From a virus (lineage: Duplodnaviria; Caudoviricetes): a DNA stretch of 64,000 nucleotides. The notes below the pieces were generated by a model, which searched no databases, was not told where the DNA came from, and saw only the letters and a list, made by a program, of their open reading frames with translations. Positions 3,656 to 54,809 of this stretch are shown piece after piece; position 1 is the stretch's first letter, and each line of letters begins with the position of its first letter. The position numbers were made by a program, and so were the translations under genes. The stretch spans positions 1-64,000 of IMG/VR virus record IMGVR_UViG_3300032038_000021; one strand, written 5' to 3'.

Positions 3656-4477
3656 ATGGTTGATTTTAAAGAAAAATATGGAAATAATTATGTAGGAATT
3701 TATGCTAGTCCTTACGATGAAAGGGATTATAAATTAAATAAATTGATTCCTAAGGGAGCTATAGATATTCCTAGAGAATATTCTTCAGAATTACCGCCGT
3801 TTATATACGATCAGGGAACTTCTAGTGAATGTGCTGCGTGTAGTTATTCTACTATAAGATATATGCAGGAATCTGATACAGAATCTGGCGGTAGTGGAAT
3901 TAAAGAGAGATTTTCTCCCAGTTTTACTTATAGTAATAGATTAGAAGGAGAAGATTTCGAAGGAATGTATCTGAGATCTGTATGTAAGAAGGGTAAAGAA
4001 GGTAGTATTCCTTGGAGTGTATTTCCCGGATTTTATACATATGCTCAATGTAAAATGAAGTTTTTATTAAATAAATCTAAATGGTTAGAAATGGCAAAAC
4101 CATTTAGAATTACTTCATATTATCAATGCACTTCTAGAGAGCAGATACAACAAGCTATAATAGAATGTAAAGCTGTATTAGCAGGTATAAATGTATTACC
4201 TTGTATATATGAAGTAAAAGAAGATGGTATCGTTCATTATGATAAGAATAAAGATCTTACTTCTTATGGTGGTCATGCTGTTACGGTAATAGGTTGGAGG
4301 TTCGATGATAATAATAACCTCTGGTATAAAGTAATTAATAGTTGGGGAACTATATATGGTGATAATGGAATTATGTGGATTCCTGAAAAATATCCTTGGT
4401 TAGAACAACCTTGGGCTATTGTAGATTATGTGATTGAAACTAAGTGGGAAGATTATAAGAATAAATATAATCTATAA
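3656..4477 (+). CDS. papain-like (C1A) cysteine peptidase
   Basis: DQG..SECAA catalytic Cys, GGHAV His, NSWG Asn; start moved to ATG 3656 after GGAGG. Confidence 0.85.
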   Translation: MVDFKEKYGNNYVGIYASPYDERDYKLNKLIPKGAIDIPREYSSELPPFIYDQGTSSECAACSYSTIRYMQESDTESGGSGIKERFSPSFTYSNRLEGEDFEGMYLRSVCKKGKEGSIPWSVFPGFYTYAQCKMKFLLNKSKWLEMAKPFRITSYYQCTSREQIQQAIIECKAVLAGINVLPCIYEVKEDGIVHYDKNKDLTSYGGHAVTVIGWRFDDNNNLWYKVINSWGTIYGDNGIMWIPEKYPWLEQPWAIVDYVIETKWEDYKNKYNL

Positions 4478-4548
4478 TATATTATTCGGATTGCAGTTAC
4501 TATAAATACAGTTATTATAATTAATATATTATATAGGGGGTATGTATT

Positions 4549-4695
4549 ATGCTAACGATATTTGCACAATGGGCTTTTCAGTTTATACTAATGATTATTT
4601 TTATTTCTGTATCTATAGTAGCTCTAACTGTATTAATAATATATTTAATATTAAAAATTTATGATTATATTCATAGAGAGGAGATTATTTTATGA
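4549..4695 (+). CDS. small membrane protein (48 aa)
   Basis: Manual translation MLTIFAQWAFQFILMIIF...; AGGGGG RBS; ATATATTATA motif at 4524. Confidence 0.55.
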   Translation: MLTIFAQWAFQFILMIIFISVSIVALTVLIIYLILKIYDYIHREEIIL

Positions 4696-4971: not shown

Positions 4972-5313
4972 TTAAATAGTATAATTAAATCCATTAATAA
5001 TATAATATTCACCAGCACTTATAGTTACACTTGGCGTTGCATCAACAATACATGATTTTGTACCTTCTTGTAATCTATGGCAAAATTGTTTATTTCCATT
5101 ATTTTTTATTACTGAAAAATATGTAGAAGTAGCAAATGGATTTGGTATATTGAAATCTAATAATTTTAAATTAACTGCTATATTATTTGCCTGTATTTCT
5201 ACATATCCAGAGAAAAATATTAATTTATTAATACCATATACATATATTACAAAAGTTTTTAATGCTGCAGTATTAACTACGAAGTCATAGGTTACTATAC
5301 TATTATCATCATC
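4972..5313 (-). other. silent tail-fibre-tip cassette c1 (DDDNSIV...)
   Basis: 114-codon open frame starting at TGATGAT core, no RBS/ATG; beta-rich. Confidence 0.75.
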
Positions 5314-5641
5314 AATCGCCTATTGGCTCATAACTATATAATCTATATTTACCCCATTGAGGTACAGATATAGTAACATAATTCGTTGTTTTATTTACAG
5401 TAATAGATAAAGTAGAAATATTACCGTCTAATATCAAACTACCATTTGCTGATTTATCCCCACCTGTAATATAGAACAGTCCAATACCAGCTATACTATT
5501 AAAATTACCAAATAAATAAAATGCTTGTTTAAATATCATAGGTGGTTTAAATGTTATAGATGTTGAACCATTGTTGGTATCGAACGCTTTACAATAAAGT
5601 GTAACTCCATTTATTCTATTGGATATCTCTTGAGCTTCATC
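5312..5641 (-). other. silent cassette c2 (DEAQEIS...)
   Basis: 110-codon frame from TGATGAA core; its stop is the TGA of the c1 core. Confidence 0.75.
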
Positions 5642-5644
5642 AGG

Positions 5645-6072
5645 TCTGTTTTTACCAAATATTCTACATATATTATAAAAAAGAAATCTGGATGATATAA
5701 GAGTATCATAGAAGATAATCCAGATTTCTTTATAAGATATCAGAGCATTATATTACGATAATACTCTAATGTCTTTATGATCAAGGTTGTCAGGTTTAAC
5801 GGGGAAATAATCGTTTAAGAACCTGACAACTTCTGTCGAAAACATATTGTTAGGATTCTGTGATATAGAATCTTTAGTAATGTTTCTGGAGACAATATTA
5901 TGCAGCAATGCTAATATTGTCTCTTTTGACAGATTGTAAGTGCCAAGATTCATATATTATACCTCCTTTCTGAGTATTTCTTCTATACTCTTATATCAGA
6001 GGTATAATATATGAATCAAAATAGTAACTTTTACAAATATAATCCCAGTAGGATTATTTCCTACTGGGATTA
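5645..6072 (-). repeat. ~420-bp small-gene module, copy 1
   Basis: Flanks similar to 7690-8117 and 54260-54688. Confidence 0.85.
5753..5953 (-). CDS. 66-aa MNLG-family small protein, copy 1
   Basis: AAGGAGG RBS; paralogs at 7798 and 54367. Confidence 0.8.
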   Translation of the reverse strand: MNLGTYNLSKETILALLHNIVSRNITKDSISQNPNNMFSTEVVRFLNDYFPVKPDNLDHKDIRVLS

Positions 6073-6412: not shown

Positions 6413-6988
6413 ATGGTTGGTCGTTGGAATGTAGATGTAAAGATGGGGATATATCCGCAGAAGGTTGCTACTGCTCTTGCTGGTCTTGGTGAAAAGCTTA
6501 CCGGAGCAGAATATACTCCGATTGCTTATATCGGTACTCAGGAAGTTAATGGTATTAACCACGCTATTTTAGCAGAGCAGCTTCTTACTACTGGTAAGGA
6601 TACTAAGAATATCGTTCTTCTTATCTTTAACGAAAAGGGAATGAATTGTGATTTGATTGCTATCGAAAGAGTAGTATCTGGTGGTGGAGCTCTTGGTGGA
6701 GTCAATATTGAAGTCCGTACTCAGATCCCGGAAGAAGCTCAGAAGGCTTATGATGCTTCCTTTGAAGGATATGTTGGTGGAGATTTCAAGCCGGTAATTT
6801 ATCTTGGTACTCAGATTACTAAGGGTGTAAATTATCTGTTTGGCGTAGAGTGTGATCCTGTTGTAAAGGATCCTCATAAGGAATTCTATATTATTTCTGT
6901 AAATAAGCTTACTGGTAAGGTTGCTTTTAAGCAGATTCTTTCGGATGATTTTGATACACATCCTTTTGGGTATGCATTTACTTGGTAA
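6413..6988 (+). CDS. uncharacterised two-repeat protein, paralog of 53132-53722
   Basis: Internal repeat P(I/V)xY(I/L)GTQxxxG(I/V)N; strong RBS. Confidence 0.8.
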   Translation: MVGRWNVDVKMGIYPQKVATALAGLGEKLTGAEYTPIAYIGTQEVNGINHAILAEQLLTTGKDTKNIVLLIFNEKGMNCDLIAIERVVSGGGALGGVNIEVRTQIPEEAQKAYDASFEGYVGGDFKPVIYLGTQITKGVNYLFGVECDPVVKDPHKEFYIISVNKLTGKVAFKQILSDDFDTHPFGYAFTW

Positions 6989-7083: not shown

Positions 7084-7383
7084 TTACACCAATTCAATAT
7101 CACTTGGATACAAACTAAGAAAAGAAAATGACCAATAGGGTAAATTTACTGTATATACAAATTTATTAACTTCTGATAAATTAAACGATCCAGTTGTCCC
7201 TGATTTCGTTATCTCGCGAATATTTTCTCTACAATAAAAACAAATATAAAAATTTGCACCTCCAGTATGTGATATTAATATTATACCTACCAAACCACTA
7301 TCATATCTACTGATTACAGTTATTTTTTTGGAATTAGCTTCATAAATAGAATAAAATCTTTTACCTATATTATTCAGATCATC
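7084..7383 (-). other. silent cassette c3 (DDLNNIGK...)
   Basis: 100-codon frame from TGATGAT core. Confidence 0.75.
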
Positions 7384-7403
7384 AAAAGGTTTTAAATTAT
7401 ACA

Positions 7404-7670
7404 TTAATTACTATCAGATGATTTCTTCCATGATTTATCTAATCTTCTAGCCCAAATATCTCCATATTGACCTATTAATAATTGCATTAGATACATTGGC
7501 TCAATACTTCTCCCTAAAACGAATAAAACTCCCCAAGGTGAAGTATTTGGAGAATTTGTTAAACCGGTAGTTGCATAATAAATACCGATTGCTGTTATAG
7601 TATTTAGATCAACATCAGTCAATACATCTTTATATGTAAAATTAATAAGTTTTGAATTATTCAAATCATC
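7404..7670 (-). other. silent cassette c4, pyocin-knob-like fibre tip (DDLNNSK...)
   Basis: DLN...GIY...NSP...WGVLFV...Q...IWAR...W pattern. Confidence 0.75.
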
Positions 7671-7797
7671 AATCGTTTATATTTTTATTATATATTCTAC
7701 ATATATTATAAAAAAGAAACTTAGATAATATAAGAGTATCATAGAAGATAATCTAAGTTTCTTTATATAATGATATTAAATCATTATCATATTAGCC

Positions 7798-7998
7798 CTA
7801 TGATAATACCATAATATCATTATGTGTAATATTATCTGGTTTGTGTTTTAAATATGTTTTAGCAAACCTGATGGCTTCACGGGAGAATTCATTATTTGAA
7901 TTCTCCTGTAAGCTATCGGTGGTAATATTACCATCGACAATACCGTGCATAATTGCAAGCATTGTTTCTTTAGGTAAATAAAAGGTACCTAAATTCAT
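7798..7998 (-). CDS. 66-aa MNLG-family small protein, copy 2
   Basis: Paralog of 5753-5953 with the same flanking module. Confidence 0.8.
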   Translation of the reverse strand: MNLGTFYLPKETMLAIMHGIVDGNITTDSLQENSNNEFSREAIRFAKTYLKHKPDNITHNDIMVLS

Positions 7999-8123
7999 AT
8001 ATTATACCTCCTTTCAAAAGTATTTCTCCTATACTCTTATATCAGAGGTATAATATATGAATCAAATTAGCAACTTTTACAAATATAATTCCCAGTAGGT
8101 TTATAACCTACTGGGGTAATTAT

Positions 8124-36006: not shown

Positions 36007-36090
36007 GCTGCTGTGATGGAACTGGCATACATAAGGGACTTAAAATCCCTCGGTAGAAATACCATGTGGGTTCGAATCCCACCAGCAGCA
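36007..36090 (+). tRNA. tRNA-Leu(TAA), CCA not encoded
   Basis: GCTGCTG/CAGCAGC acceptor, AGGGA-CTTAAAA-TCCCT anticodon arm, long variable arm, GGTTCGAATCC. Confidence 0.95.
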
Positions 36091-40361: not shown

Positions 40362-40465
40362 TTCCTCCTGTATGAATTTATTATATTGATTACATTTTTA
40401 TAATATAAGAGTATAGAGATTATCTAGTAAACAAATACATTAAATAGGAAACAAATATATCTCGA

Positions 40466-40636
40466 TTATTTAAAGTATTGCTTGGATTTTAAATAATCTA
40501 AAATAAACTTCTGCATTACAGAAGCTTCATGCCTACTGGGTAAATTAGTTATACTAATCAATCCAGCATCAATCATATTCTGTATCTTTATCCTGGCTTG
40601 GTCGGACAAACCAGGATATGAATACGAAGTTTGCAT
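40466..40636 (-). CDS. 56-aa protein in divergent copy of the MNLG module
   Basis: Manual translation MQTSYSYPGLSDQARIKIQNMIDAG...; same leader TGATATAAGAGTATAG and GGAGG. Confidence 0.65.
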   Translation of the reverse strand: MQTSYSYPGLSDQARIKIQNMIDAGLISITNLPSRHEASVMQKFILDYLKSKQYFK

Positions 40637-40761
40637 AATATTTACCTCCTATAAAAGTATTTCTCTATACTCTTATATCAGAGATATAATATATTATTAT
40701 ATTTAGCAACTTTTACGAAAAAAGAAATATCCCGGTAGGTATTATTACCTACCGGGTGATT

Positions 40762-41180: not shown

Positions 41181-41480
41181 CTATATCTTTAATTCTAAAA
41201 ACCCTATCCTTGATAAAAATTCACCAAGAGATTCATCTGGATAGCTTACAACAAAAGCTTGTTGAATACCTTGTTTTATAGCTTTTTTGATCATGTAATT
41301 TAAATAGATAGTATTGATCGTAATATTGGTATCTTTCGGCAATTTAAATATTTTAGCATTAATTTTGCTAGTTAAAATCCAATTACAATTTTCCGTCCGA
41401 TAAAGAAGAAAATCAGTAGTATCAAATATAGGTCTTATATTAATATTGATTTTTGGTTTATTAAAGAAGCGGGTAGACAT
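41181..41480 (-). CDS. hypothetical protein
   Basis: AAGGAG RBS. Confidence 0.6.
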   Translation of the reverse strand: MSTRFFNKPKININIRPIFDTTDFLLYRTENCNWILTSKINAKIFKLPKDTNITINTIYLNYMIKKAIKQGIQQAFVVSYPDESLGEFLSRIGFLELKI

Positions 41481-41539
41481 CGTGCACTTCTCCTTCCATA
41501 TTATTAGCCCTTTTCATTATCTAATAATTTTATCTTAGT

Positions 41540-41863
41540 TTATTTTCCAATCACTATTCCTACTTTCATTGAAAAATTATTATTCATCTCTTCATAATTC
41601 TTTAAGTTATATTTTTTATCGTGCTTATCTTCTAAAATAGCAGATCCAAATACTACTTGAAATTTTGCTATCAAATCTTTCTGTTCTTCTGTAAGATTAG
41701 AATAGAAATCGGATAGATAATCACGACACGCAAATCTTTCTCCGTTAATACTCCTTATATTTAAATCCGAATACTCTTTTCTAGTAACCTCAGTATTAAA
41801 TATTGATCCCATTTCATTACATGTATCATAATATCTTTTAAATGACTTCATTAAATCTTTCAT
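41540..41863 (-). CDS. tandem paralog 3 (LSDFYSxLTEEQK family)
   Basis: Similar to the two adjacent ORFs. Confidence 0.75.
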   Translation of the reverse strand: MKDLMKSFKRYYDTCNEMGSIFNTEVTRKEYSDLNIRSINGERFACRDYLSDFYSNLTEEQKDLIAKFQVVFGSAILEDKHDKKYNLKNYEEMNNNFSMKVGIVIGK

Positions 41864-42171
41864 ATTTTATTTTTTATTACTCCTTTCATTGAAAAAGTCT
41901 TATTCAGCATAACATAATTCTTTAAGTTATACTCTTTGTCTTTTTTATCTTCTGCAAGAACAGATCCAAATAATACACGAAACTCTGCTATTAATTTTTT
42001 CTGTTCCTCTGTAAGTTGAGAATACCAATCAGATAGATAATTACGACATAAAAATCTTTCTCCTTTAATACTCTTTATATTTAAATCTTTATATTTCGCA
42101 TCATTCAATAAGCAATCAATTTCATTACGTGTATCACGAAATCTTTCAAATGACTTCATTAAATCTTCCAT
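41860..42171 (-). CDS. tandem paralog 2
   Basis: As above. Confidence 0.75.
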   Translation of the reverse strand: MEDLMKSFERFRDTRNEIDCLLNDAKYKDLNIKSIKGERFLCRNYLSDWYSQLTEEQKKLIAEFRVLFGSVLAEDKKDKEYNLKNYVMLNKTFSMKGVIKNKI

Positions 42172-42524
42172 TTTACTCCTCCTTTTATTGAAAATTTATT
42201 ATTCAACTCTTCATAGTTCTTTAAATTGTACTCTTTATCTTGATTATCTTCTGTAATAGCAGATCCTAATAACACATGAAACTTTGCTATAAATTTCTTC
42301 TGTTCTTCTGTAAGCTGAGAATAAAAATCTGATAAACATTTGCGGTATATAAATCCATCTCCATTAATACCCATTTCATTCAGATCGTCATACTCTTTTT
42401 TATTATATTCATTATTAAAAAAGTAAGTTATTTCATTATTTGTAGCATCATATCTTTTAAGCTCTTCCATTGCTATTTTATATTTTCTTACTCCTTCAAG
42501 TTCAGAAATACCAATAGTTACCAT
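42159..42524 (-). CDS. tandem paralog 1
   Basis: As above; early motif 42565-42574. Confidence 0.75.
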   Translation of the reverse strand: MVTIGISELEGVRKYKIAMEELKRYDATNNEITYFFNNEYNKKEYDDLNEMGINGDGFIYRKCLSDFYSQLTEEQKKFIAKFHVLLGSAITEDNQDKEYNLKNYEELNNKFSIKGGVKWKI

Positions 42525-51276: not shown

Positions 51277-51433
51277 AAAACAATCGGCTCTAGGGTTAAT
51301 TCCCTAGAGCCGTTAAAATTGCTAAAAATAATCATATATTATATTTTAAATAAATAATAGGAAACTGGATTAAATTATAGAAAGGTGGTGATTATATAAG
51401 GATAAAAGAAATAGGAAATAGACAAGGAGGTGA

Positions 51434-51607
51434 ATGAGATTGATTTATCTTAATAAAGATCAAATAGATCAAGTTGTCCAGATTGCAAAGTCGATACGAC
51501 CTGATCTATTTCCTGATGGCAACCATATCATTGGGAGATCTTATAAAGATTTATTTGAAGTTTCTAATCTTTACAGAACTATCTGTAAAGATTTAGGATA
51601 CAGATAA
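51434..51607 (+). CDS. 57-aa protein with complementary 5'/3' flanks
   Basis: AAGGAGG RBS, MRLIYLNKDQIDQVV...; early motif at 51334. Confidence 0.6.
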   Translation: MRLIYLNKDQIDQVVQIAKSIRPDLFPDGNHIIGRSYKDLFEVSNLYRTICKDLGYR

Positions 51608-51778
51608 TAAATCACAAAAACCCGTAGTAACAATCCAATCTTTTATCCTAATCTATTTCCTATTATTTATTTGTAAAAAGAAAAGTAAATATTAAATATT
51701 TACTTTTCTTTTTTATCTGTATAATAATTTATAATTACCTCTTTATATTTTATAGTTTTCTGATGCTTAGAATCTTAA

Positions 51779-53131: not shown

Positions 53132-53722
53132 ATGGGTGTTGGAGCTTGGAACGTAAATGTAGTTACTGGTGGAATGCCTGAGAAGATTGCTACGGCAGTA
53201 TCTAAGGTAAATGAGCAGTTTGTTGGTGCCGAATATACTCCTATTGCTTATGTAGGATCTCAGGTGGTGAATGGAACTAATCATGCAGTTCTTGCTGAAC
53301 AGCTTCTTGTTACTGGTAAGGATCAGAAGAATGTAGTTCTTCTTATCTTTAACGAAAAGGGAATGGATGTAGATCTCGTTGCGATTGAGAGAATCGTTGA
53401 ATCTGGAGAAGCACTCGGCGGTACTGTTGTAGACGTTAAGACCGATATCCCGGAAGATGCTCGGAAGACATTTGATAGAGTGCTTGGTGGATTTGTTGGT
53501 GCTGCGGTTGAGCCGGTAGCTCTTCTTGCAACTCAGGTTGTTAAGGGAGTTAATTACGTTTTTGCTGCGGAGGTAACTCCTGTAGCTGTTACGGCTGGAG
53601 AACCTGTAAAGAAGTTCTGTGTTGTTGTTGTGAATAGTCTTGATAAGAAGGCTAGTTTTGCAGATGTTCTAAAAAGCGGATTGGAAGTTGCTCTTGGTAA
53701 ACCACTTGGTGAATGGCCGTAA
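53132..53722 (+). CDS. uncharacterised two-repeat protein, paralog of 6413-6988
   Basis: Shared GAEYTPIAY, NHA.LAEQLL.TGKD. Confidence 0.8.
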   Translation: MGVGAWNVNVVTGGMPEKIATAVSKVNEQFVGAEYTPIAYVGSQVVNGTNHAVLAEQLLVTGKDQKNVVLLIFNEKGMDVDLVAIERIVESGEALGGTVVDVKTDIPEDARKTFDRVLGGFVGAAVEPVALLATQVVKGVNYVFAAEVTPVAVTAGEPVKKFCVVVVNSLDKKASFADVLKSGLEVALGKPLGEWP

Positions 53723-53793: not shown

Positions 53794-54054
53794 TTATAAT
53801 GATATATAATATATATGATATGTAAAATTTTTATTAATATACGGTGTATTATCTAATCTATTATTAACTATCAATATATATTCTCCACTGGTTTTAATTG
53901 ATAATGAAGAATGTAATAATGCACTATTAGCTTCACATCGTGCAGATAAAACAATATAATTATATATACTATATCCTGTAATACATTCACCTTGTCCGTT
54001 TGTAGTATCTGTTAATACTTTTTTACTAATTGTTTTAAACTTAGAATTTTCATC
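53794..54054 (-). other. silent cassette c12 (DENSKF...)
   Basis: 87 codons from core; resembles c23. Confidence 0.7.
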
Positions 54055-54366
54055 AAAACCTTTAATTATATTTTTCTACAGTCTTCAACTTTTATACTTT
54101 AGTTTTTATATTTAGTATATTCTTAATCTTTTCGAATAGGACAAATCCTTCTTCTATTTTTCTCATAGATGGGTTGGGAGAATTCTTAATCAATTTTTCT
54201 ATTGATTCAGCCCAATCAGATTTCATGATTTCATCTTCTATAAACTCTTATTTCAACTAGGTCTGATTTTACAAAATAGTCTACATATATTATAAAAAAG
54301 AAATCTGGTGTATGAGAGTTGTAATAGAAGATAAACCAGATTTCTTTTTAGATTTAGAATATTATG

Positions 54367-54567
54367 TTATGATAATACTCTAATATCTTTATGTTCAAGG
54401 TTACTGGGTTTCACCTTGAAATAATTACTGAGAAATCTAATAATTTCTTTAGAAAATCTATTATTAGGATTTTCCGAAATCGAGTTTTCAGTAATATCAC
54501 CATCTACAATACTATGCAATAAATACAACATAGTACTTTTGGGCAAATAGTACGAACCTAAATTCAT
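54367..54567 (-). CDS. 66-aa MNLG-family small protein, copy 3
   Basis: Paralog with the same flanking module. Confidence 0.8.
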   Translation of the reverse strand: MNLGSYYLPKSTMLYLLHSIVDGDITENSISENPNNRFSKEIIRFLSNYFKVKPSNLEHKDIRVLS

Positions 54568-54809
54568 ATATTATACCTCCTTTCAATAGTATTTCTTCTA
54601 TAACTCTCATACTAGAGGTATAATATATGAATCAAATTAGTAACTTTTACAAATATAATTCCCAGTAGGTATAATACCTACTGGGATAATTATTCCATAT
54701 ATGTATATATTATTAGTCACTAAGATTAATCCTAGTGACTTACTATTATCTTAATGTTTTTCAATACGATCACATTAAGATAATTTAAAAGAAAGGAAGG
54801 TCTTTTTCT

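Follow-up and report, generated by a model that had tools for sequence, protein, structure and literature searches.

Genome setting and layout of the modules

The window, that is, the whole 64,000-nt stretch of DNA analyzed here, is the first part of a 118.9-kb IMG/VR virus record with an estimated completeness of ~48%. Its GC content is ~29% and the standard genetic code fits it; an alternative code was ruled out, code 11 coverage already reaching 85% of the window. Genes in the record include a divergent family-B DNA polymerase (PF20286), an anaerobic ribonucleotide reductase, PhoH, the major head protein and several virion proteins. The record had no blastn match among GenBank phages, and thus no close relative there; the related contigs that we found were all of metagenomic origin, and the phage is uncultivated. 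Rfam at its gathering score, applied to the whole window, matched nothing at the modules described below and returned one tRNA alone, a single gene at 36007-36090 (+ strand).

Three paralogous modules on the minus strand each hold a 66-aa ORF, an inverted repeat over its SD and ATG, a terminator hairpin and three occurrences of the motif ATATATTATA, which is found 23 times in the window vs. 5.2 expected. Read in gene orientation, each module runs from a hairpin (CCCAGTAGG..CCTACTGGG) through a conserved TTTGTAAAAGTTRCTAATTTGATTCATATATTATACCTCT and a leader (GATATAAGAGTATAGAAGAAATACT..GAAAGGAGGTATAATATATG) to the 66-aa ORF, then a 14-bp stem with a 24-nt loop, T6 and ATAATATATGTAGA. In copy 1 the upstream, putatively insulating hairpin (CCCAGTAGG / CCTACTGGG, 6044-6068) is terminator-like on both strands. 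The predicted promoter, GTAAAAGTTACT-N10-CATATATTATA (6003-6034), has a core matching the AR9 early consensus and an upstream element also present in two further cassettes, B and C (below); its N6 spacer (5998-6003) leads to a predicted +1 at G5997. The 5'-terminal leader box GAUAUAAGAGUAUAGAAGA (5979-5997) is complementary to the terminator loop, the complement beginning at -1 to +1 of the predicted start. The 66-aa ORF (MNLG..., 5753-5953) has its SD, GGAGG, at 5962-5966, and the intrinsic terminator (5674-5731) is a 14-bp stem (5680-5693 / 5718-5731) closing a 24-nt loop, hereafter the anti-box (5694-5717), and followed by U6. The inverted repeat (5947-6017) has one arm in the promoter (5999-6017) and another (5947-5965) that, on the minus strand, spans four of the five SD bases, the spacer, the ATG and the next codon of the ORF. 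On the opposite strand stands a putative promoter core, ATATATTAT-AAAAAA-G (5668-5683, + strand), with +1 at G5683, the first base of the hairpin, making a candidate for an antisense hairpin RNA.

Copy 2 (7701-8115, - strand) has its hairpin at 8091-8115, core at 8049-8058, predicted +1 at 8043, repeat at 7993-8010 / 8045-8062, ORF at 7798-7998, terminator at 7713-7764 and opposite-strand motif at 7701-7710. The corresponding elements of copy 3 (54285-54685, - strand) are the hairpin at 54661-54685, core at 54619-54628, predicted +1 at 54613, repeat at 54562-54579 / 54615-54632, ORF at 54367-54567, terminator at 54295-54349 and opposite-strand motif at 54285-54294. The inverted repeat of these two copies is 18 bp.

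An initial annotation had already pointed to most of these elements, and we concur with its description. The 19-bp repeat over part of the RBS and the ATG is present and perfect, the downstream hairpin does present a 24-nt loop matching the leader (5978-5998; 86% complementary over 21 nt, RNAduplex energy -23.6 kcal/mol) on its 14-bp stem, and ATATATTATA stands at 5668 (+), 5952 (+) and 6003-6012 (-). Copy 3 was said to alter both partners together and copy 2 to carry compensatory stem changes; in the former we see the leader go from GATATAAGAGTAT to AGTATGAGAGTTAT with matching changes in the loop, and in the latter three double, pair-preserving changes.

Between copies the flanks are ~90-95% identical, and the coding sequences have 60-70% DNA identity and 58-67% protein identity; flanks so much more alike than the ORFs point to selection on the non-coding parts. 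We rejected a 13-aa plus-strand ORF, MNQISNFYKYNSQ, that starts in the second repeat arm, as not conserved (frameshifted in copy 1, stopped after two codons in the metagenome locus L009). The module as an intron within a larger gene was also ruled out, the divergent PhoH gene upstream of copy 3 leaving no upstream exon.

The 66-aa protein belongs to a narrow family (30 clusters, 53-100% identity) that carries no annotation. Its AF2 model (pLDDT 85.7) has three helices; acidic and basic residues are about equal in number and there is no membrane segment. Foldseek against the PDB gave no match for the model and the ESM Atlas nothing, and a VIA-align structural search gave only weak homeodomain-like, generic three-helix matches (best Z 3.7) that were uninformative. 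Nothing in these sequence or structure searches indicates a DNA-binding autoregulator. Because the model is of a soluble three-helix protein, with no membrane segment, the product is unlikely to be a classical type I toxin.

Variation among homologs

A protein search of IMG/VR found no relatives of the 66-aa protein, and DNA pattern scans there for the repeat and leader gave nothing, or chance matches alone. The homolog set consisted of 17 metagenome loci with flanks (one metagenome scan yielded four loci), and the alignment, A5, of 20 modules. The 5'/3' complementarity that the initial annotation had taken to covary across the three copies fared unevenly in this larger set: both hairpin stems change in compensatory fashion, and leader/loop covariation is not strict. 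Compensatory changes affect four of the 14 pairs of the terminator stem (97% of alignment cells paired) and four of the nine pairs of the upstream hairpin (99% paired); by these changes both are real hairpins. The 19-bp anti-SD/SD repeat, 93.5% paired, is mostly retained, with a both-sided change in just one of its 18 pairs.

There are seven leader alleles and seven partner alleles, cassette B included. Matched pairs are type 1 with type 1 (copy 1), type 3 with type 3 (copy 3) and private pairs in loci L011 and L031. Two recombinants, L004 and L006, join a type-3 leader to a type-1 loop, and still pair well (-20.8 and -22.6 kcal/mol) because the A to G changes in the leader give G.U pairs. The hybrids L033, L034 and L037 (from three samples) join a type-1 leader to a type-3 loop with two A.C mismatches, at -13.3 kcal/mol; this loss implies that full pairing is not indispensable. 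Nine of the 10 leader/loop combinations observed lie at -20.6 to -24.6 kcal/mol. The one-sided changes in copy 2, L004, L006, L010, L012, L014 and L031 make G.U pairs in the sense RNA and C.A mismatches on the other strand. When loops were permuted among loci, cognate pairing was favored with p = 0.014 by locus, and p = 0.26 with each allele combination counted once. With so few alleles, with recombinant hybrids among them, and with significance by locus vs. none by allele, covariation of leader and loop inside the 66-aa family is weak, suggestive rather than decisive.

The same plan in two further cassettes

Through a genome-wide search for long-range inverted repeats, combined with direct reading of the sequence, we found two more cassettes, B and C, both outside the intervals of the initial annotation. 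Cassette B (40380-40760; elements at 40403-40756, - strand) has a hairpin at 40731-40756, a core at 40685-40694, predicted +1 at 40679, a box at 40662-40678, a 56-aa ORF at 40466-40636, and an anti-box at 40403-40419 that is a perfect 17-nt complement outside any hairpin. Promoter and leader are shared with the 66-aa family, the complement lies 260 nt downstream, and the 56-aa protein is at best a distant relative of the 66-aa protein (23% identity). This cassette has a matched change of its own, the leader going from AGAAGA to AGAGA and the partner from TCTTCT to TCTCT, with no bulge. Tandem paralogous genes for 99-121 aa (41181-42524, - strand; 71-77% DNA identity among the three longest copies) end at the hairpin before cassette B.

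Cassette C (51289-51716, + strand) encodes an unrelated 57-aa protein (ORF 51434-51607). Behind its hairpin (51289-51312) and core (51334-51343) it has a wholly different box, AAATAAATAATAGGAAA (51348-51364), whose perfect 17-nt complement (51656-51672), unrelated to the 66-aa family sequence, lies 307 nt downstream, directly before a classical terminator (51675-51713). Homologs of cassette C do not vary, and thus allow no test of covariation. In one of them (L040:1040-1476) a 40-nt deletion takes away the promoter core and the 5' box, leaving the anti-box and the SD-proximal complement intact. A second 3' pairing in cassette C (51410-51428 / 51646-51664; 19 nt, 89%) spans the region before and into the SD; it uses the same 3' segment as the 5'-end pairing, so that the two are mutually exclusive and could form a switch. 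Pfam and PHROGs searches with the 66-, 56- and 57-aa proteins and their neighbors gave nothing informative.

Over the five cassettes, perfect complements of 17, 17, 14, 12 and 11 nt lie 260-307 nt downstream of the ATATATTAT sites, and each begins within -1 to +1 of the predicted start. In a control of 1500 random positions, four reached a complement of at least 14 nt and 42 reached at least 11 nt, and sites with the variant core ATATACTAT had no such complement at their predicted start. A hairpin and promoter precede all five cassettes. The anti-box may lie within a loop, directly ahead of a terminator or away from hairpins altogether; conserved, then, is its position at the mRNA's 3' end rather than any particular arrangement of the DNA. 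The sequence elements, the covariation of the hairpins and the recurrence of the plan in unrelated cassettes are established, and it is cassettes B and C that lend end pairing stronger support than does covariation inside the 66-aa family.

Predicted promoters and start sites

The early (virion RNA polymerase) promoter consensus of AR9 is AAATATATATTAT-N6-G(+1), and in phages related to phiKZ the vRNAP promoters are described as conserved, extended sequences rich in A and T (PMC5312081). All five cassettes have the ATATATTAT core followed by N6 and a purine, and this N6 rule puts +1 at G5997, G8043, A54613, G40679 and A51348/9, exactly where the boxes begin. It is mainly for this coincidence that we favor a reading at the RNA level, the start sites themselves being predicted by analogy with AR9. 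A related core, ATAATATACTATA, has 15 matches in the window vs. 2.7 expected, and at seven sites (3559, 23206, 27956, 42565, 44685, 49824 and 58917) it is co-oriented with a gene start 30-90 nt downstream, which fixes the functional orientation of the ATATAYTATA core; in the five exact ATAATATACTATA sites the seventh base after the core is a purine. ATATAYTATA with N6 and a purine is probably the general promoter core of the phage.

The likeness to early promoters of the AR9/phiKZ type lies in the extended AT-rich core, ATATATTAT, with a start 6 nt downstream at a purine, in a phage with a divergent family-B DNA polymerase (PF20286). The cassettes differ in carrying an extra conserved upstream element, GTAAAAGTTRCT, in that their starts are predicted ones, and in that the half-genome available yielded no genes for RNA polymerase subunits. 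In the 118.9-kb record, ~48% complete, PF00562 and PF00623 (RNA polymerase subunits, which are very divergent) had no match, and no phage RNA polymerase appeared among the large ORFs scanned with PHROGs. A reading in terms of sigma-70 promoters was dropped, the scan finding 20 vs. 19.9 expected, which is chance level.

The initial annotation had placed an antisense promoter over the start codon (5952). That motif copy lacks both the upstream GTAAAAGTTRCT and a +1 purine, and is simply the other arm of the 19-bp repeat. Elsewhere in the window, at 4473-4650, a convergent pair of ATATATTAT motifs (+ strand at 4478, - strand at 4643), each followed by an inverted box of ~20 nt (about 4493-4511 and 4607-4628), surrounds the start of a 48-aa ORF, an arrangement kept in locus L014.

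Predicted fold-back of read-through transcripts

Of the two arms of the 19-bp repeat, the upstream one coincides with the promoter core and has its last base at -1. It would thus be absent from mRNA made from the cassette's own promoter and present in transcripts that enter from upstream. The normal mRNA therefore probably forms no such hairpin, and the repeat would act on read-through transcripts only. In the 66-aa and 56-aa cassettes the sequence immediately before the predicted +1 is the reverse complement of the stretch from SD to AUG, so that RNA arriving from upstream would fold back over the ribosome site and mask it; RNA begun at the cassette's own promoter would not. Read-through RNAs had predicted folds of -17.5 to -32.7 kcal/mol in cassette B and in all nine of the 66-aa-family members tested, the spacer-changed L004, L008, L011, L033 and L036 among them; of the 16-21 bases from SD to AUG, 13-16 paired with bases before the start. 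In copy 1 the fold was at -32.7 kcal/mol, with 16 of the 17 SD-to-AUG bases paired upstream of the start site. Own-promoter RNAs were weakly folded (-1.9 to -11.2 kcal/mol), and cassette C is without the anti-SD feature in its promoter arm.

Davis, Simons and Kleckner are said to have described, in 1985, fold-back inhibition of read-through transposase mRNA in IS10/IS50. There, reportedly, as in our prediction, the upstream arm of an inverted repeat precedes the element's own start and the other arm lies over the ribosome site, so that foreign read-through transcripts alone are silenced. The cassettes differ in that the promoter core itself serves as the upstream arm, 18-19 bp pair without a mismatch and no transposon is involved, the effect here being predicted from sequence.

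Proposed end pairing of the cassette mRNAs

The three modules would be paralogous, autonomous small early-gene cassettes of an uncultivated rumen jumbo phage, with at least five such cassettes in the window. The terminator hairpin upstream would insulate the cassette, and a phage-type promoter, GTAAAAGTTRCT-N10-(C/A)ATATATTAT-N6-purine(+1), resembling the AR9 virion-RNA-polymerase early promoters, would drive an mRNA of roughly 320 nt for a protein of 56-66 aa. The first 17-22 nt of this predicted mRNA are complementary to its own 3'-end segment (in the 66-aa family, the 24-nt terminator loop), and the finished mRNA would close on itself by 5'-3' end pairing. Such a clamp may bury the 5' end, limiting decay and/or timing translation in the way of hok and aapA mRNAs, and as, in nested folds, the pairing competes with the terminator stem, it could modulate read-through as well. 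We lean toward this model of cassettes whose RNA pairs 5' with 3' end as the best explanation; that the pairing occurs in vivo, and to what effect, we infer from sequence patterns.

In minimum-energy folds of the whole mRNA, nt 1-22 pair with the terminator 'loop' (19-24 bp) in copies 1, 2 and 3, L006 and L031, and this pairing displaces the terminator stem, which alone is worth just -12 to -18 kcal/mol. The clamp could be read in two ways, the 5' end being buried after termination, or a free leader competing with terminator formation during transcription. A buried 5' end slows 5'-end-dependent decay in many bacteria, and we consider 5'-end sequestration, for stability and/or timing, the more likely function. 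It is very doubtful, by our estimate, that early mRNAs bear a cassette-specific 5' 'private address' which, by pairing their own 3' end, decides between a stop and a run-on into the start-less cassettes (described below) that begin at a (T)GATGA core 33-36 nt further on. Points against the end-pairing model include the sterics, a 19-bp duplex within a closed 24-nt loop being awkward, and L040, which retains its anti-box though the box has been lost.

A similar closure is known in type I toxin mRNAs, hok/Sok and Helicobacter aapA/IsoA having a 5'-3' long-distance interaction (PMC6733600, PMC9841398). Like these, the cassettes would make a short mRNA for a small protein, with a 5' end that pairs its own 3' end, a compact stable full-length transcript, family-specific pairing sequences and multi-copy loci. 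In the toxin mRNAs the 3' partner is an anti-SD, and trimming of the 3' end activates translation; in the 66-aa family, by contrast, the first ~20 nt would pair with the terminator loop, not the SD; the setting differs too, an early cassette of a phage, and the product is no hydrophobic peptide. We found no description, for phage genes, of mRNA starts matching their own tail over ~20 bases.

Alternative explanations

Since an inverted repeat is symmetric in DNA, each 'RNA pairing' above can just as well be read as one site occurring twice, once per strand. Box and anti-box might be a single element, a binding site for a protein or a sequence close to a promoter, present once on each strand. 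Candidates are operators to which a regulator binds (the small protein could be that regulator), two convergent promoters that share their initial sequence, and inverted repeats at the termini of a mobile cassette; templated repair or co-evolution with a binding factor would preserve the likeness of the two copies. This would suit the 66-aa family, where both arms lie downstream of a copy of the promoter core at spacings (5 and 16 nt) that differ by about one helical turn, and the convergent motifs with inverted boxes at 4478-4650; flanks far better conserved than the ORF, with mosaics present, are expected of recombining cassettes, and the L033-type hybrids match slightly better when read on the other strand. 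Cassettes B and C, however, have no opposite-strand promoter core beside the anti-box, and the box sequence differs wholly between cassettes, which excludes a single shared factor. Nor do box alleles track protein groups, the type-3 leader occurring with three of them, and on this independence we ruled out co-evolution of the protein with an operator; the 66-aa protein is in any case near neutral by residue count and has no clear DNA-binding fold (best structural Z 3.7). One-sided changes compatible with G.U in the sense reading outnumber those giving A.C. We regard a DNA-level explanation as unlikely.

Another account, to which we give rather less credence, makes an antisense hairpin RNA the main regulator of the 66-aa family. 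The core that abuts the T-tract of the terminator would fire a plus-strand hairpin RNA of ~55 nt from G5683, fully complementary to the terminator hairpin of the mRNA and with a loop equal to the leader, and this would either provoke cleavage of the mRNA at its 3' end or, as a 'decoy', vie with the leader for binding to the loop. The antisense motif fits ATATATTAT-N6-G exactly, with +1 at the stem base in each copy (5683, 7716, 54300); the ATAATATATGTAGA that follows the T-run is identical in 15 of the 16 A5 loci reaching it, though the sequence beyond diverges; a TTAC element lies 11 nt upstream of the antisense core, compared with 10 nt in sense promoters; and the plus strand has a short U-rich run after the stem. 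Yet the upstream GTAAAAGTTRCT is missing or degenerate and the spacing is off by one, the plus-strand U-tract is poor in copies 1 and 2, L011 has the core altered to TATAATAT, and cassettes B and C have no antisense motif but keep the 5'-3' complement, for which reason we treat the motif as an add-on of the 66-aa family, a rival or a complement to end pairing. The initial annotation had proposed type I toxin-antitoxin-like 5'-3' pairing, and the pairing part of that proposal fits what we see: it lies within the sense mRNA, is found again in cassettes B and C, and has its complement starting from the predicted +1, and one-sided changes are mostly G.U. The full reading as a type I system would have a toxic 66-aa protein, its mRNA held inactive by 5'-3' pairing and antisense RNA, serving as an addiction element for the neighboring cassette depot. 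In favor are mRNA complementarity like that of hok and aapA (PMC6733600), a possible promoter motif on the opposite strand, the several copies of the module and the second 3' pairing of cassette C, which reaches the SD. The identity of the module as a toxin-antitoxin is not supported, since the product, a soluble three-helix protein by its model, has no hydrophobic or membrane segment, and the long-range helix in copies 1-3 covers nt 1-22 and stops at least 11 nt before the SD. Pfam and PHROGs gave no match for such a system, and it is hard to see what post-segregational killing would do for a jumbo phage that looks lytic; we consider a type I system highly improbable. The modules would resemble par (fst/RNA II) of pAD1 and the 3'-overlapping type I systems of Bacillus in having a small ORF between convergent promoters, a bidirectional terminator common to both RNAs and contacts made by loops at the terminator. 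The repeats of those systems are complementary between the two RNAs; here both RNAs would instead bear the same box, and the complementarity is within the sense mRNA.

Neighborhood of the modules

The 3' flank of the modules is conserved, by reading of the alignment, up to a (T)GATGA core 33-36 nt past the U-tract in 14 of the 17 A5 loci reaching this region. Similarity between copies stops at that core, where ORFs with neither start codon nor SD begin (5312-5752, 7084-7664 and 53794-54075, - strand). CUGAUGA is also the core of hammerhead ribozymes; Rfam found no ribozyme in the window. The initial annotation placed each module upstream of cassettes and supposed that it might stabilize this depot; the adjacency to ORFs with a (T)GATGA core is confirmed, and it lends no support to stabilization. 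In copy 1 the 66-aa ORF and the next start-less ORF share a frame, with a single TAA between them (5753-5755). Read-through of this stop codon was ruled out, the frame being shared in copy 1 only, and loci with type-3 loops differing by 1 nt (loop 1 nt shorter). A tblastx comparison of the regions downstream of the copies gave one weak match only.

Paralogous genes for 191 and 196 aa (6413-6988 and 53132-53722, both + strand), with no family match, adjoin copies 1/2 and copy 3, so the repeated unit is larger than the module. In sister phages (L033:1208-1378 and L013:505-675) a gene for a 56-aa protein (MFYGV...), unrelated to that of cassette B, lies directly upstream of the 66-aa module.

PeSL cassettes of T4-type phages combine a composite early promoter with a stem-loop terminator (PMC2839356, PMC4122927). 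As there, conserved terminator-plus-early-promoter units flank small, fast-evolving ORFs, the flanks being far more conserved, and mosaics occur here in L004, L006 and L033. Because the promoter type differs from the T4 sigma-70 early type, we say that, judged by sequence, the cassettes appear to work like PeSL mobile regulatory cassettes, not that they are members of that class.

Implications

The architecture is real, non-random and conserved, and would combine 5'-3' mRNA closure, read-through fold-back and promoter-terminator cassettes in small early genes. The modules mark the upstream edge of depots of start-less ORFs; if the 5' end did decide between stop and run-on, they would be an RNA switch linked to the phage's cassette library. 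The coincidence of boxes with predicted starts would let the starts used by virion RNA polymerases, a poorly known group of jumbo-phage enzymes, be predicted from sequence alone, and the design would offer simple, testable RNA devices for silencing read-through, protecting a 5' end and possibly controlling termination by the leader. If the pairing is real, early genes of this phage would be packageable as self-contained units in which the promoter also serves as an anti-ribosome-site element and the mRNA's opening bases are matched to its own terminator, and 5'-3' closure would extend from bacterial toxin genes to ordinary genes for host takeover by a phage.
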